Below are positions 1 to 12,745 of a DNA stretch of 64,000 nt, piece by piece (position 1 is the stretch's first letter; the number at the start of each line of letters is the position of its first letter). Location: contig DASXVG010000141.1 of the NCBI GenBank assembly GCA_036504355.1, positions 5,650 to 69,649 on the forward strand. Direction: 5' to 3'. This DNA comes from Candidatus Limnocylindrales bacterium. Lineage in GTDB: Bacteria > Chloroflexota > Limnocylindria > Limnocylindrales > CSP1-4. The notes under the pieces are model-generated. The model was given only the letters and a program-made list of their open reading frames with translations, was not told the origin of the DNA and did not search any database. Position numbers and translations under genes: made by a program.

Positions 1-265
1 GCGGGATCAGGAACGGATCTGCGATGTAGCCGCCCGTGATGCTCAGGACGACGATGCACCCGGCGGTCACCCAGTGCGTGAGCCGCACCGGGACCTGCCA
101 GACGTACAGGCGCACGCGCTCGTCGGGGCGGTCGATCTCGTGGGTGTCGTGGGTCTCGATCGCCGCGCCGGGCGTCGGCTCCGGCGAGGCCTGCGGGAGC
201 GGGAGCTGCGGGGCCGCAATCGCCTCGGCCATGGGCACCGCCACGGGCTCCTCGACGGCTGTCAT
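1..265 (-). CDS. hyaC: Ni/Fe-hydrogenase b-type cytochrome subunit, N-terminal part (runs off the window's left edge)
   Basis: Reverse translation gives MTAVEEPV...ERVRLYVWQVPVRLTHWVTAGCIVVLSITGGYIADPFLIP, the HyaC/HupC first-helix motif with the heme His. The ATG overlaps the large-subunit stop (ATGA). Confidence 0.88.
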   Translation of the reverse strand, partial: MTAVEEPVAVPMAEAIAAPQLPLPQASPEPTPGAAIETHDTHEIDRPDERVRLYVWQVPVRLTHWVTAGCIVVLSITGGYIADPFLIP

Positions 266-2031
266 CGGGTCCCCTCCGCCGCGTGGACGCGGATGTCGAA
301 CGGGCCCGTGCCGTCCGGATCGAATGCGTGGACGGCGCAGGTCGGGCAGGGGTTGAAGGAATGGACCACCCGCAGGACCTCGAGCGGCCGGGTTGGATCG
401 GCGACGGGCGTCCCGGCGAGCGCGGTCTCGAGCGGTCCTCGCGTGCCGAGCACGTCGCGCGGCGACAGGTTCCAGGTGGAGCCGTCGACGACCTGGTAGC
501 GCTCCACGACCTTGTTGGCGATGCCCACCCAGTGGGCGACGGACCCGCGCGGGCCCTCGCCGACCGACCAGCCGTCGGCGCCCTGGGGCCACGACTCCGG
601 GTCCCAGCTCGTGATGTCGGCGACGGACACGTCGCCGGTCGCCAGGCTCGACTTCAGCTCCCACACCCAGCTGTCGGCCCGCCTGATCACCGCCTGCGCC
701 TCCACGGCGCGGGCGAGCGTCCGGCCCAGCACGCTCGGCAGCACGTCGACGCCGCGACCGAGCGCGGTGAGCAGCTCGCCGAGCGGGGTCGTCAGCGCGT
801 CGCGGCCATCCGCGTGTGCGATCAGGACCCGGGCGAGCGGCCCCGTCTCCATCGGCTGGCCGTCGTATCGGGCGGCCTTGATCCAGGTGTAGCGGCCGTC
901 GGCCGACAGTTGGCCCAGCGGCAGCGGCGCATCGAACGCCGGCGTCGTCTGACCCTTCGCCGGGACCCGCAGGTCGGCGGCATCGACCTCGTCCCCATAC
1001 CACGCGTGGATCACGGACTCCCCGACGGCATCGGGATCGGCTCCGTTGACCCGGGCGAGGTTTCCGCCAACGAGACGGCCGGCCGGCAGGTAGCGCGGTC
1101 CGTCCAGCTCGTCGCTCTCCGGGAGGTCGCCCCAGGAGAGGTAGTTGCCCGGTCCCGCGCCGATGCTCCCCCACTCCCGGTAGGCCCCCGCGAGCAGGCG
1201 AACGTCCGGCAGGTACACCCCGTTGACGTACGCGGCCGCCGCGCCGATGGACGCGTCAAGGAGGGCGAGCCCGTCCGCGCTCAGCGGGTTGGGGGCGTTG
1301 CGGTCGGGGATCTCCGGGTGGCCCCGGTTGCTGCGGGCAGTGGGGCCGCCCCACGGCGGCGCGAGCGCCATCCCGCCGACGAGGTAGGTCTGCGGGTGCG
1401 GGTCCTTGCCGCCGAGCAGCGCGTGGATCCGCATGAGCTGGCGCTGCCAGTCGAGCGCCTCGACGGCGTGCGCAAGGAGCAGGAGGCTCTGCTCGGGGCT
1501 CAGCGCGTATGCCGGGTGCCCGGACCACGGGCTCGTGAACGGGCCCGGGCCCGACGCCGCCGAGGCGGCGAACCGGTCGCGGGCGGCGGTCATCGCGTCG
1601 GTCGTGGACGACGGCCAGTCCGAGATCGAGCGGCCGAGGCGCGCCGTCGCGGACGGATCCGCCTTGAGCGCCTGCGTGACGTCGACCCAGTCGGGCAGCC
1701 CCGCCTGGTAGAACGTCAGGACGTGGTCGCGGACGAGGCCGGTCGAGGCCAGCAGGTTGCGCAGGATCCGGGCGTTGGCCGGGATGCGCACGCGCAGCGC
1801 CCGCTCCACGGCACGCACGGACGCGAGCCCGTGGACGCCCGTGCACGTCCCGCAGATACGGTTCGCCAGGAGCCACACCTCGCGCGGATCGCGGCCGCGG
1901 AGCACGGTCTCGAGGCCGCGGAACATCGTGGCGGATGCCAGGGCGTCGGTCACGGCGCCGCCGTCGACGTCCACCTCGACCCGCAGCTGGCCGTTGACTC
2001 GGGTGACGGGATCCACGACCAGGCGGCTCAT
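262..2031 (-). CDS. hyaB: [NiFe]-hydrogenase large subunit, group 1-like, with atypical active-site residues
   Basis: L1 RICGTC, L2 NPCPTCAVH plus a C-terminal extension, FRGLE, PHPQ, GPRG..HW, WNLSPRD. Confidence 0.95.
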   Translation of the reverse strand: MSRLVVDPVTRVNGQLRVEVDVDGGAVTDALASATMFRGLETVLRGRDPREVWLLANRICGTCTGVHGLASVRAVERALRVRIPANARILRNLLASTGLVRDHVLTFYQAGLPDWVDVTQALKADPSATARLGRSISDWPSSTTDAMTAARDRFAASAASGPGPFTSPWSGHPAYALSPEQSLLLLAHAVEALDWQRQLMRIHALLGGKDPHPQTYLVGGMALAPPWGGPTARSNRGHPEIPDRNAPNPLSADGLALLDASIGAAAAYVNGVYLPDVRLLAGAYREWGSIGAGPGNYLSWGDLPESDELDGPRYLPAGRLVGGNLARVNGADPDAVGESVIHAWYGDEVDAADLRVPAKGQTTPAFDAPLPLGQLSADGRYTWIKAARYDGQPMETGPLARVLIAHADGRDALTTPLGELLTALGRGVDVLPSVLGRTLARAVEAQAVIRRADSWVWELKSSLATGDVSVADITSWDPESWPQGADGWSVGEGPRGSVAHWVGIANKVVERYQVVDGSTWNLSPRDVLGTRGPLETALAGTPVADPTRPLEVLRVVHSFNPCPTCAVHAFDPDGTGPFDIRVHAAEGTR

Positions 2032-3218
2032 GCGTCCGTCTCCGGCCCGGCGGGCGGCTGGTCGGGGGGCGCCACCTCGGCGGCGTCGACGCCGCCCGTC
2101 ACGACGGTCTCCGCGTCGCCAGCGAGATCGGCGTCTGCGGCGCGTCGTGCGACCCGCTCACGGTACTTCGAGCGCGTCGCCATCCCTGCCCCGTGCGCCA
2201 CGGCGACCGCGCCGATGCCGCCGACCAGCACCGCGCCGACCGTGTCGACGGTGAGGCTCGGGAAGAACGGCACCGGGGATCCGAGACGCCGGTAGGCCGG
2301 CGTGTACCCGTCCCAGAAGTTCGGCGCGAAGCAGCCCACGCACCCGTGGCCCGCCCTCACGTTCCAGCTCACGCCGGCGCCGTAGCGGACCGTCGGGCAG
2401 TTGCCCATCGTCTCCGGGCCCTTGCAGCCGACCTTGTACAGGCACCAGCCCTTCTGGGCGCCCTCGTCGCCCCACGCGAGCGCGAACTCCCCGAACTCGA
2501 AGTGCGGCCGCCGCTCGCACTGGTTGTGGATGAGCGACCCGTAGAACGCGAGCGGCCGGCCCATCATGTCGGCCGGCGGGAAGTCGCCGAACGTGACGTA
2601 GTGGACGATGGTCGCGGCCAGGTTGGCCGCGTTCACCGGGCAGCCGGGCAGCATCACGGTGCGCGAGTCGCCCGTGACGGACCGCACGCCCTCGGCATCG
2701 GTCGTCCCGCCGTTCGCTCCGGGTGCGCCGCCATCGAACGCGCACGAGCCGAGCGCGATCGTCACGATCGCGCCATCGCAGACCTCTCGAGCCACGTCGG
2801 CGAAGGGTCGACCGCCCACGAGGCACGACGACCCGCCACCGGCCTTGGGCACCGACCCCTCGATCACGGCGAGGTAGCCGTTCGGGAACCGCTCCATCGC
2901 CGACTGCATCGCGAGCCCCGCGTCGGCGCCCGTGGCCGTCATCAGGGTCTCGTGGTAGTCGATCGCGAGGACCTCGAGCAGGAGGTTCGCGGTCGTCGGG
3001 TCGGCGGCCCGGAGGAGCGCCTCGGTGTTGCCGCCGCATGCCTGGCCGCGGAGCCAGATCACCGGGATCCGGGGCGCCTGCTCCACGGCCCGGGCGATCG
3101 TCGGCCCGTACGCCGCAGGAAGGGCGAGCGCGGCCGCCATCGCGGAGGAGAACTTGAGGAAGGTGCGACGGGACATCCCGCGGCGCACGAGCGCTGCGTA
3201 CAGCCCATCCTCACCCAT
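2028..3218 (-). CDS. hyaA: [NiFe]-hydrogenase small subunit with Tat signal and C-terminal membrane anchor
   Basis: SRRTFLKF twin-arginine motif, CGGN, GSCA, PGCP, IHNQCERR, CLYKVGCKGP, NCP, GHGCVGC and a C-terminal hydrophobic helix. Confidence 0.95.
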   Translation of the reverse strand: MGEDGLYAALVRRGMSRRTFLKFSSAMAAALALPAAYGPTIARAVEQAPRIPVIWLRGQACGGNTEALLRAADPTTANLLLEVLAIDYHETLMTATGADAGLAMQSAMERFPNGYLAVIEGSVPKAGGGSSCLVGGRPFADVAREVCDGAIVTIALGSCAFDGGAPGANGGTTDAEGVRSVTGDSRTVMLPGCPVNAANLAATIVHYVTFGDFPPADMMGRPLAFYGSLIHNQCERRPHFEFGEFALAWGDEGAQKGWCLYKVGCKGPETMGNCPTVRYGAGVSWNVRAGHGCVGCFAPNFWDGYTPAYRRLGSPVPFFPSLTVDTVGAVLVGGIGAVAVAHGAGMATRSKYRERVARRAADADLAGDAETVVTGGVDAAEVAPPDQPPAGPETDA

Positions 3219-3496: not shown

Positions 3497-3748
3497 TCAG
3501 TCGCGGGTGCGGTCGCGGTCCCCCGCCGGCGGGCGGTTCGCGAGCGCCTGCTTCGCGTTGAAGTCGATGAACGGGATCAGGAGCGGGACGGCACACAGGC
3601 CGGCCACGAGGAGCGGCAGGAACACGAGCAGGAGGCCGCCAGCGACGCTCGCGAAGCCAAGCTGGATGAGGATCGACCCGGTCAGCAGGTACGCGGCCAG
3701 ACCCACGGGTACTGCGAGCACGAGGAGGAGGATCCGGCCGATGGGCAT
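3497..3748 (-). CDS. Small hypothetical membrane protein (2 TM)
   Basis: MPIGRILLLVLAVPVGLAAYLL... has two long hydrophobic stretches and host-like codon usage. Confidence 0.65.
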   Translation of the reverse strand: MPIGRILLLVLAVPVGLAAYLLTGSILIQLGFASVAGGLLLVFLPLLVAGLCAVPLLIPFIDFNAKQALANRPPAGDRDRTRD

Positions 3749-11573: not shown

Positions 11574-11978
11574 CTACTCGCGCGGCGTCGCGTTGGCGCG
11601 GATGAAGTCGGCGACCTCGCGGATCGTCGTCCCGGGCCCGAACACGGCGGCGACCCCCGCCTCCTGGAGCGGCGCGATGTCGTCGTCCGGGATGATTCCG
11701 CCGACCGTCACGAGGACGTCGTCCAGGCCGCGTTCGCGGAGCTGGGCGCAGACGCGCGGCACGAGCGTCATGTGGGCGCCCGACAGGATCGACAGGCCCA
11801 CGACGTCCACGTCCTCCTGGAGCGCCGCGGTCACGATCATCTCGGGGGTCTGGCGGAGACCCGTGTAGACGACCTCGAAGCCTTCGTCCCGCAGGCCGCG
11901 TGCGAGGACCTTCGCCCCGCGGTCGTGGCCATCGAGGCCGGGCTTCGCGATCAGCACCTTGAGCGGTCGATCGGTCAT
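11574..11978 (-). CDS. Cobalamin-binding small subunit of acyl-CoA mutase (IcmB/MutB-C-like)
   Basis: [13 protein letters not shown] (DxHxxG), [19 protein letters not shown]. Confidence 0.95.
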
Positions 11979-12007
11979 GGCGGGATTGTAGGCCGCGGGG
12001 CGGCGCG

Positions 12008-12745
12008 TCAGGCGCCGGGGCCGGGGCGGCCGATGTGGGCGAAGAACTCCGCGCGGGTCTTGTCGTTGCGCCGGAACAGGCCGAGGACGGCGGCGGTGGT
12101 CATCGTGGTGCCGGGCTTGCGGATGCCGCGCATCGCGGCACACAGGTGCGTGGCATCGAGCACGACACCCACGCCGCGCGGCTCGAGCCGCTCCATGAGG
12201 AAGTCCGCCACCTGCTGCGTCATCCGCTCCTGGACCTGGAGCCGGCGCGCATACATCTCCACGACGCGCGGGATCTTCGACAGCCCGATGACGCGCCCGT
12301 TGGGCACGTAGGCGACGTGCGCGGCCCCGAAGAACGGCAGCAGGTGGTGCTCGCACAGCGAGTAGAACGGGATGTCCTTCACGACGACCATCTCGCTGTA
12401 GTCGACGTCGAAGATGGCCTTGTTGATGAGCCGCTCCGGGTCCACGTGGTAGCCGGCGGTCAGCTCGTGGTACATCCGGTGCACGCGCGCCGGCGTCGCC
12501 GCCAGTCCCTCGCGGGCCGGGTCCTCGCCGATCTCCGTGAGGATCTGGCGCACGGCCTCCTCGATCCCGCCCGTGGCCGGCGTCCGGCCGCGCCTGGACA
12601 GGCGAGCCGGGGACGCGATCTCGGCCGCGCTCGTGACGACGCCCTCGTAGCCGTCGTCGCCGATCTCGTTCTCGATCTCGTCGACGATCCGCCGGACGTC
12701 CTCCGGGAGGTCGCGTGTCTTCGGCTCGTCGGGACGGTCGCTCAT
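12008..12745 (-). CDS. folE: GTP cyclohydrolase I
   Basis: [43 protein letters not shown]. Confidence 0.96.

Follow-up and report, generated by a model that had tools for sequence, protein, structure and literature searches.

A natural clade of group 1f-related [NiFe]-hydrogenases that lacks the proton-gate glutamate

The hydrogenase locus and its altered large subunit

We analysed a 64,000-nucleotide stretch of DNA (the window) from a Candidatus Limnocylindrales bacterium (contig DASXVG010000141.1 of assembly GCA_036504355.1, positions 5,650 to 69,649 of the forward strand), which carries at one end a [NiFe]-hydrogenase operon. The large subunit encoded there retains the ligands of the metal site and has asparagine in place of the glutamate that, in Escherichia coli hydrogenase 1 (Hyd-1), is residue E28, a residue termed the ‘universal proton gate’ (PMC8020662). 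The locus comprises the following features.

262–2031, reverse strand: hupL-like [NiFe]-hydrogenase large subunit, 589 residues, a Glu-less derivative of group 1f (open reading frame, Pfam, PDB and AlphaFold2)
265–327, reverse strand: C-terminal extension of the large subunit, 21 residues (A569–R589), the expected substrate of the maturation protease (sequence kept across the clade described below)
2028–3218, reverse strand: hupS-like small subunit, 396 residues, with a twin-arginine translocation (Tat) signal and a membrane helix at its C-terminus (Pfam Oxidored_q6, NiFe_hyd_SSU_C and TAT_signal)
3153–3173, reverse strand: Tat signal of the small subunit, S16-RRTFLK (Pfam TAT_signal, E 1.4e-5; TIGR01409)
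1–265, reverse strand: cytochrome b subunit, first 88 codons of a protein of 277 residues, cut at the window edge (from the sequence)
13139–13864 of contig L001, about 1.4 kb beyond window position 1: heptahaem cytochrome c, 241 residues, with a membrane helix at its N-terminus and seven CxxCH motifs, translationally coupled to the protease gene

The large subunit matches Pfam PF00374 (NiFeSe_Hases) over its full length (E 1e-158, residues 38–568), and its top solved relatives are the Allochromatium vinosum enzyme 3MYR (3MYR_B, E 7e-137), followed by Salmonella Hyd-5 and E. coli Hyd-1. An AlphaFold2 (AF2) model of the large-subunit monomer has a predicted local distance difference test score (pLDDT) of 77 overall, and of less than 50 at residues 10–14, 208–244 and 563–589. 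It aligns to 3MYR with template-modelling scores of 0.88/0.92, a Foldseek result that confirms only the group-1 fold. The small subunit scores 359.6 bits against TIGR00391 (cutoff 179.5). An identical large subunit is encoded on a 112-kb contig from the Joint Genome Institute (JGI), L001, and in an independent Logan assembly. On L001 the cytochrome b gene is complete (11767–12600; TIGR02125 133.3 bits against a cutoff of 121.5, with a Pfam Ni_hydr_CYTB match) and is followed by the gene for a HyaD/HybD-type maturation protease (TIGR00072 109.7 bits, cutoff 47.45). The gene order is hupS–hupL–cytochrome b–protease–heptahaem cytochrome, with overlapping start and stop codons. Within the window, the translational coupling claimed in the preliminary description of this DNA is evident as ATGA overlaps between hupS and hupL (2028–2031, 4 nt) and between hupL and the cytochrome b gene (262–265). 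The locus, at which the DNA is about 73% G+C, hence combines a Tat-exported small subunit beside hupL, a cleavable tail with a cognate type of endopeptidase and a hydrogenase cytochrome b.

Residue equivalences were taken from an alignment of the large subunit to E. coli HyaB, and positions in other enzymes are given below in Hyd-1 numbering. The sites of interest, all on the reverse strand, are these.

1993–1995, reverse strand: Asn13, codon AAC, at the position of the proton-gate Glu (E28 of Hyd-1, E34 of Desulfovibrio vulgaris Miyazaki F, DvMF) (sequence and alignment)
1861–1863, reverse strand: N57, flanking the L1 motif
1843–1860, reverse strand: L1 motif R58-I-C60-G-T62-C63, with Cys ligands of Ni/Fe and Thr in place of the gas-gate residue Val78 (alignment)
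1831–1833, reverse strand: His67 of the ‘histidine pathway’, flanking L1
1699–1728, reverse strand: remnant of the L3 His-rich motif, with D102-H103 kept and H122, H125, L126 and H127 replaced by T106, Q109, A110 and G111 (alignments)
1306–1356, reverse strand: clade-specific insertion of 17 residues, P226-W-G-G-P...H238-P...P242, just past the GGKDPHP loop (alignments)
547–549, reverse strand: canopy Arg495, equivalent to Hyd-1 R509 (alignment)
478–486, reverse strand: D516-G517-S518, near the active site, for the canonical V-P-[ST] of HyaB 530–532 (alignments)
328–354, reverse strand: L2 motif N560-P-C562-P-T-C565-A-V-H568, with Cys ligands, Asn for the canopy residue Asp574, and the C-terminal His, a Mg ligand, at the cleavage site (alignments)

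The protein thus reads TRVNGQ, RICGTC, TFYQAG and FNPC where canonical enzymes have TRIEGH, RICGVC, HFYHLH and FDPC. Further equivalences are Q15 to H30, N57 to E73, T62 to V78, T106 to H122, A110 to L126 and N560 to D574. The four Cys ligands (C60, C63, C562, C565), R495, D102 and H103 (D118 and H119 of Hyd-1) and the Mg ligands E41 and H568 are kept. The residue calls of the preliminary description (TRVNGQ, FNPC, RICGTC, Thr for the His of HFY, and intact Cys, Arg and tail) were all borne out by the HyaB alignment. A change of the second gas-gate residue, L126 to Ala110, was absent from that description.

Conservation, selection and phylogeny of the clade

To place these residues in context, we used an alignment of 185 sequences, consisting of 130 members of the clade to which the window protein belongs, 52 canonical group 1f relatives and three reference enzymes. 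The residues E28, H30, V78, H122, L126 and D574 are present in all 52 canonical sequences and in the three references. In the clade, by contrast, no member has Glu at position 28: the residue is Gly in 107, Asn in 17, Asp in three and Ser in three, so that the R-x-E-G-H form of the ‘universal’ gate is found in none of the 130. The suspicion that orthologs carry the acid and that only this assembly differs is not supported by these counts. Thr occupies the V78 position in 120/130 members, as against Val in 52/52 canonical sequences, and the L126 position holds Ala, Arg, Ser or Glu. Within L3 the D118 and H119 positions are kept, while the clade as a whole has lost H122, H125, L126 and H127. At the D574 position we found Ala in 71 members, Asn in 23, Asp in 19 and Ser in 12. 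C60, C63, C562, C565 and H568 are invariant, and the canopy Arg495 is retained in 128/130.

Some earlier claims about this signature needed revision. It had been described as a concerted change of acids to Asn; across the clade it is a loss of carboxylates, with Gly in the majority at position 28 and Ala at 574, and with Asn secondary (17/130 and 23/130). The identification of D574 as a canopy acid that is Asn in the window protein stands, but the acid is not universal, being Ser in [NiFeSe] enzymes (PMC8020662). E73, which had also been singled out, makes a weak case, as the position varies across the family: it is Gln in all sampled canonical 1f sequences, in Hyd-2 and in A. vinosum, and E, Q or D within the clade.

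Wider searches gave the same picture. The best 120 protein clusters in a collection of 5.8 billion proteins (54–100% identity) all lack the Glu. A scan with one genome per species returned about 20 Glu-less loci, all in Chloroflexota/Limnocylindrales metagenome-assembled genomes (MAGs), together with about 55 loci at 43–50% identity from Acidobacteriota, other Chloroflexota, Acidimicrobiia and others, which are fully canonical. Among 80 diverse representatives at 50% identity that include the N-terminus, Glu is present in 72; of the 8 that are without it, 6 belong to the clade, as fragments or as basal members. When 15 billion proteins were clustered at 50%, the whole clade was reduced to a single representative. 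Two more distant proteins were recorded separately. P0193 (529 residues, 37% identity) reads TRAGGN, yet has canonical VTPTTWN and FDPC motifs without the insertion, and looks like an independent Glu-less [NiFe] lineage, as judged from its motifs. P0216 (517 residues), which is without the Glu, the Arg and the C-terminal His, looks degenerate.

The unusual states are maintained by selection. Relative to an ortholog of 87% identity, the ratio of nonsynonymous to synonymous substitution rates (dN/dS, omega) is 0.148 for the large subunit at a dS of 0.55, and 0.157, 0.169 and 0.170 for the small subunit, cytochrome b and heptahaem cytochrome genes, which indicates that purifying selection acts on the hydrogenase operon of the clade. 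Asn13 and Asn560 are both encoded by AAC in four orthologs down to 69% identity (87%, 72% and 69%), and the flanking genes are syntenic in three orthologous contigs. Decay and assembly error can be excluded because omega is 0.15, the states are clade-wide, two assemblies agree and synteny is conserved; the earlier suggestion that the changes are selected rather than decayed is upheld on the same grounds. Accordingly a pseudogene, recent decay or a sequencing or assembly artefact, for which nothing speaks beyond the unusual residues themselves, has a negligible probability, since the protein is identical in the JGI and Logan assemblies, orthologs at 87%, 72% and 69% share the states and the AAC codons, and the frames are intact and translationally coupled.

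A neighbour-joining tree with 100 bootstraps was calculated after removal of the diagnostic columns, with few outgroups. The hydrogenase of Silvibacterium bohemicum, published as HydDB group 1f (PMC5900883), served as the anchor for that group. The Glu-less clade is monophyletic in 100/100 bootstraps, in keeping with the prediction of a divergent hydrogenase subclass, and its sister is a Chloroflexota-type branch of canonical 1f sequences (100/100). Group 1f and the clade together are separated from the 1c, 1d and 1e references in 98/100 bootstraps, and canonical 1f alone is never monophyletic. Since the clade is nested in group 1f, which is paraphyletic in the bootstraps, the Glu was therefore lost once, inside this group. 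On this evidence the clade is a Chloroflexota (Limnocylindria-type) offshoot of group 1f, a placement that comes from the tree and its S. bohemicum anchor.

Gains of the clade and the small-subunit relay

The clade is marked by gains as well as losses. These gains, and the small-subunit losses taken up below, do not figure in the preliminary description and are the co-changes that tell the most. Asp516 is present in 130/130 members, where 51/52 canonical sequences have Val, and Gly or Ala replaces the otherwise invariant Pro that follows, so that canonical V-P-[ST] becomes D-[GA]-[ST]. This triplet lies two residues past the equivalent of HyaB C528, a Mg ligand through its backbone carbonyl. 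The Ser or Thr of x-P-[ST] hydrogen-bonds a cyanide ligand of the active site, and the corresponding S499 of D. fructosovorans has been a target of active-site mutagenesis, to go by PDB titles only. In HybC it is the carbonyl of Ala498 that binds Mg (PMC5902676). In Pyrococcus furiosus Mbh, Glu343-Pro344-Thr345 are counted among residues of the first and the second coordination sphere by a quantum-mechanical model built on the DvMF structure (PMC11228991); the equivalence of Asp516 with Mbh Glu343 was drawn from motif correspondence. We considered whether an acid at x-P-T might be a general trait of group 4 and rejected this, as E. coli HycE has Ala.

The second gain is the 17-residue insertion, which occurs in none of the canonical 1f sequences or reference enzymes. 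Its residues W227, G229, P230, H238 and P239 are invariant in all 130 members, and its AF2 pLDDT is below 50. The insertion follows the His loop of the proximal cluster, GGKDPHP, in which N227D (Hyd-1 numbering) is found in 88% of the clade; Arg occupies HyaB position 117 in 96%. The third gain is the heptahaem cytochrome gene: it occurs at 22/22 of the clade loci whose sequence extends far enough downstream, and at 0 canonical loci. Its product resembles DmsE/Mtr-, NrfB- and NrfH-type cytochromes weakly, with scores far below the family cutoffs. All these gains are already found in the most basal members (L023, L020, L027, L017, L062, P0112 and P0121); V78T and D574A, like the losses in the His-rich motif and the changes in the small subunit, arose afterwards.

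The small-subunit changes concern the partners of the missing Glu. A neutron structure of DvMF hydrogenase shows the Glu carboxylate in hydrogen bonds with the terminal Cys and with the small-subunit residue Thr18, which faces Glu16 (PMC10498676). The small subunit encoded in the window has lost both partners, and a Cys of the proximal cluster, in a single short segment.

3027–3041, reverse strand: A60-C61-G62-G63-N64 of the small subunit for the canonical E16-C17-T18-G19-C20, with the relay partners lost and the second proximal Cys replaced by Asn (alignments)

Position 16 of the small subunit is T, A, S or G in 19/21 clade loci, as opposed to Asp in 42/43 canonical 1f sequences, and position 18 is Gly in 20/21. 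The large-subunit Glu was lost before these partners because the basal members L017 and L020 keep Asp16. Judging from the residues present, the canonical exit by way of Cys, Glu, and Thr and Glu of the small subunit would be unable to operate here.

The environment of the iron–sulphur clusters is likewise altered. Cys20 is replaced by Asn, or by Asp or Glu in some members, and the same change is also found in 30/44 canonical 1f small subunits. As the Cys20 change is common to most Chloroflexota-type canonical 1f enzymes, it is therefore older than the loss of the Glu. Much of group 1f seems to share this trait, which is apparently undescribed and, from the sequence, implies a proximal cluster with three Cys (plus Asn or Asp) or with three Fe; groups 1h and 2a have a proximal cluster with three Cys and one Asp. 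The positions of the supernumerary Cys19 and Cys120 are both Gly, so that the six-Cys proximal cluster of O2-tolerant group 1d enzymes is absent. At the medial cluster, 17/22 clade members have Asn in place of Pro242, a residue that 44/44 canonical sequences keep.

With regard to neighbouring genes, the flanks of the locus showed neither a kinase nor a regulator gene, and tblastn detected no second hydrogenase and no hyp genes within the 64-kb window. Homologs of hypA and hypC adjoin many canonical 1f loci. Two small open reading frames lie just upstream of hupS.

3497–3748, reverse strand: 83 residues, predicted membrane helices
3775–3999, reverse strand: 74 residues

Counterparts of both, equal in size and position, are found in the contig of the 87%-identical ortholog (L085); no family match was recorded for them.

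Possible proton routes and the function of the clade

How might protons leave an active site of this type? Several elements of other proposed routes are retained. Arg495-Asp102-His103-Glu444-Arg401-Glu492 of the window protein correspond to Arg487-Asp103-His104-Glu436-Arg393-Glu484 of A. vinosum and Thiocapsa roseopersicina. All six, as well as His67, are invariant in a 28-sequence alignment (A1); across the 130 clade sequences H103 and E444 are invariant, and R495 and D102 are each kept in 128/130. An alternative proton route along the Arg487-Asp103-His104-Glu436 chain is supported by mutagenesis: much activity remained in a tetra-His mutant, within the His-rich motif only A. vinosum H104 mattered, and the effect of E14Q was less pronounced (PMC3325256). 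His67 is equivalent to His82 of the Ralstonia eutropha membrane-bound hydrogenase and to His88 of DvMF, which belong to the ‘histidine pathway’ (PMC11228991). Furthermore, the Glu of Hyd-1 is dispensable for the first deprotonation, and the block caused by E28Q can be relieved by entry of H2O or OH− (PMC8020662; PMC10430524).

We infer, with a probability of roughly 60%, an active and normally matured H2 oxidiser with a rerouted proton exit, derived from group 1f. The open reading frame would encode the catalytic subunit of a Tat-exported, membrane-anchored, cytochrome b-linked respiratory uptake [NiFe]-hydrogenase; since the architecture of such an enzyme is complete, we assume that, after normal maturation, it oxidises H2 at the membrane's outer face. 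In this scheme the ancestor of the clade would have given up the canonical exit from the terminal Cys through Glu28 of the large subunit to Thr18 and Glu16 of the small subunit, with Glu28 changing first to Gly and only later, in the branch of the window, to Asn. Subsequent losses would have included the small-subunit partners, four of the five L3 histidines, the two hydrophobic gas-gate residues and, as a rule, Asp574 of the canopy. Together with the Glu loss, at that one node, the clade would have gained Asp516 beside the Ni–Fe site, the insertion beside the proximal-cluster loop and the co-transcribed heptahaem cytochrome c. Protons might then leave through Asp516 and water in the space freed by Gly or Asn13, as a relocated carboxylate, and/or through the invariant Arg495-Asp102-His103-Glu444 chain, or through His67 beside the bridging Cys. 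With Thr at one position of the formerly hydrophobic gate pair and Ala, Arg, Ser or Glu at the other, a polar channel to the site may have opened as well, and altered gas access is possible in view of V78T and L126A/R/S across the clade. Electrons would pass from a proximal cluster with three Cys plus Asn to cytochrome b and on to, or through, the heptahaem cytochrome.

A more specific form of this proposal is that the catalytic carboxylate has moved from the β1–β2 loop (Glu28) to the x-P-T strand (Asp516), that the small-subunit relay has been dismantled, that the heptahaem cytochrome extends the electron output and that the clade forms a new group-1 subgroup. Taken as a whole we regard this as tentative and rather less than an even bet.

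Several points weigh against an active H2 oxidiser with a rerouted exit. Loss of the Glu reportedly abolishes activity or cuts it about 100-fold in every enzyme tested. The tree is a neighbour-joining tree only, with few outgroups, and the clade is known only from MAGs or metagenomes, that is, from sequence alone. The confidence of the AF2 model is low exactly at residues 10–14, 208–244 and 563–589. The basal members L017 and L062 lack the canopy Arg (GPGG or SPGG for GPRG) and have Ser for Asp118; they still keep the four Cys, Asp516, the insertion and the heptahaem gene, and may be catalytically very different or inactive, which hints that parts of the clade would not be efficient H2 catalysts. 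Finally, hypA and hypC are absent within 10 kb of every clade locus fetched and within the 64-kb window, from which it appears that the maturation genes of the Glu-less hosts must sit elsewhere in the genome.

A first alternative is a low-turnover or signalling hydrogenase, which would split H2 with very slow turnover and act as an H2 sensor or as a ‘trickle’ scavenger. In its favour, the clade has lost the Glu gate together with the partners in the small subunit, and in many cases the canopy Asp, engineered Glu-less variants are nearly inactive, and the two basal members are without even the canopy Arg and Asp118. Putatively sensory [FeFe] hydrogenases are also reported to have altered proton paths (PMC10407848). 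One Chloroflexia MAG, MFD02416.bin.2.65, holds a Glu-less hydrogenase (L005) and a canonical 1f enzyme (L030) on different contigs; the two types can thus share a genome, and presumably have separate tasks. Such a role is nonetheless unlikely, as the respiratory architecture (Tat signal, anchor, cytochrome b above its equivalog cutoff, tail with protease, heptahaem cytochrome) argues for a respiratory enzyme, and the invariant new Asp and the purifying selection on the operon genes suit a working redox complex. In group 2b, to which the known sensors belong, the enzymes reside in the cytoplasm, have neither a Tat signal nor a C-terminal extension, and act by way of a histidine kinase. R. eutropha HoxBC would be a functional analogue if turnover were very low, but membership of group 2b is ruled out by the Tat signal, tail, membrane anchor, cytochromes b and c and protease, and by the lack of a kinase in the flanks. 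The sensor-like reading offered in the preliminary description conflicts with this gene content.

Quite unlikely, in our view, is a change of chemistry linked to the heptahaem cytochrome, be it detoxification of O2 or reactive oxygen species, H2 oxidation to an extracytoplasmic acceptor or redox conversion of another small molecule. The physiological role of group 1f is unsettled and the group has been labelled ‘oxygen-protecting’, the gas-gate residues have become Thr and Ala, Arg, Ser or Glu, the surroundings of the proximal and medial clusters have changed, and the clade-specific cytochrome has its weak resemblance to DmsE/Mtr- and NrfB/NrfH-type proteins. However, those scores are far below the family cutoffs, all H2-activating elements (four Cys, Arg, Asp118 and the Mg site) are kept, and no group-1 [NiFe] site is known to act on another substrate. 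It is distinctly improbable that the protein is an ordinary 1f enzyme in which water takes the place of the Glu carboxylate and the remaining changes are neutral drift. The occurrence of Gly, Ser, Asn and Asp at position 28 does suggest a tolerant, solvent-lined site, and the E28Q variant of Hyd-1 can be rescued by water entry. Drift would not be expected to give conservation in 130/130 members, concerted changes fixed at one node in two subunits, or an invariant Asp for an invariant Val-Pro by the active site together with an invariant insertion and a new gene at the same node.

Comparison with known systems sets the clade apart in each case. The nearest is group 1f itself (S. bohemicum, Acidobacterium ailaaui, Roseiflexus and Frankia synton-3; 45–50% identity), for which the PDB holds no structure. 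It has adjacent hupS and hupL, a Tat signal, cytochrome b and protease in common with the clade, and many Chloroflexota members share the Cys-to-Asn change; unlike the clade, canonical members have E28, H30, V78, the full His-rich motif, L126, D574 and V-P-[ST] and are without the insertion and the heptahaem cytochrome. The Hyn-type enzymes of A. vinosum and T. roseopersicina (group 1e, 3MYR) have the Arg487-Asp103-His104-Glu436 chain that is fully kept in the window protein, but differ in their E14 gate, full His motif, V/L gas gate, canopy Asp, four-Cys proximal cluster and electron partners. The Hyd-1 (group 1d) mutants E28Q and E28D (5LMM, 5LRY) and D574N (5A4I) affect the same positions, D574N being identical to the natural N560; whereas these are laboratory point changes that impair catalysis, the natural clade has many co-adapted changes under purifying selection. 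P. furiosus Mbh (group 4) has Glu at x-P-T where the clade has Asp516, and the [NiFeSe] hydrogenases (group 1a) naturally have Ser for the canopy Asp, but both keep the Glu gate and, as members of other groups, work with other partners. The high-affinity ‘atmospheric’ groups 1h, 1l and 1m, also found in Limnocylindria/Ellin6529, share phylum and soil habitat with the clade. They were ruled out, as the match to 5AA5 is weak (E 7e-24 for the large and 1.5e-15 for the small subunit), the subunit genes are adjacent and cytochrome b lies downstream: group 1l, reported to be exclusive to Limnocylindria/‘Eulabeiota’, has its subunit genes separated by five transmembrane genes, group 1m is actinobacterial and differs in its set of genes, and none of the three has a cytochrome b.

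Our searches of the open-access literature turned up no account of either a natural Glu-less [NiFe] lineage or a gene cluster of this kind, and the clade has probably been filed silently as ‘group 1f’ in metagenomic surveys. For two decades the debate on proton exit (Cys-Glu, Arg/Asp canopy or His pathway) has been based on point mutants of a few model enzymes. The clade offers a natural test of these routes, being a selectively maintained lineage that lacks the Glu and its partners and keeps the metal site. If its members are active, the ‘universal’ Cys-Glu gate would be dispensable in nature and the competing routes could be separated; a single characterised member could show which elements suffice for H2 activation and which tune bias, affinity or O2 resistance. 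Since it is found in Chloroflexota that are widespread in soil, the enzyme may also matter for the cycling of H2 there.

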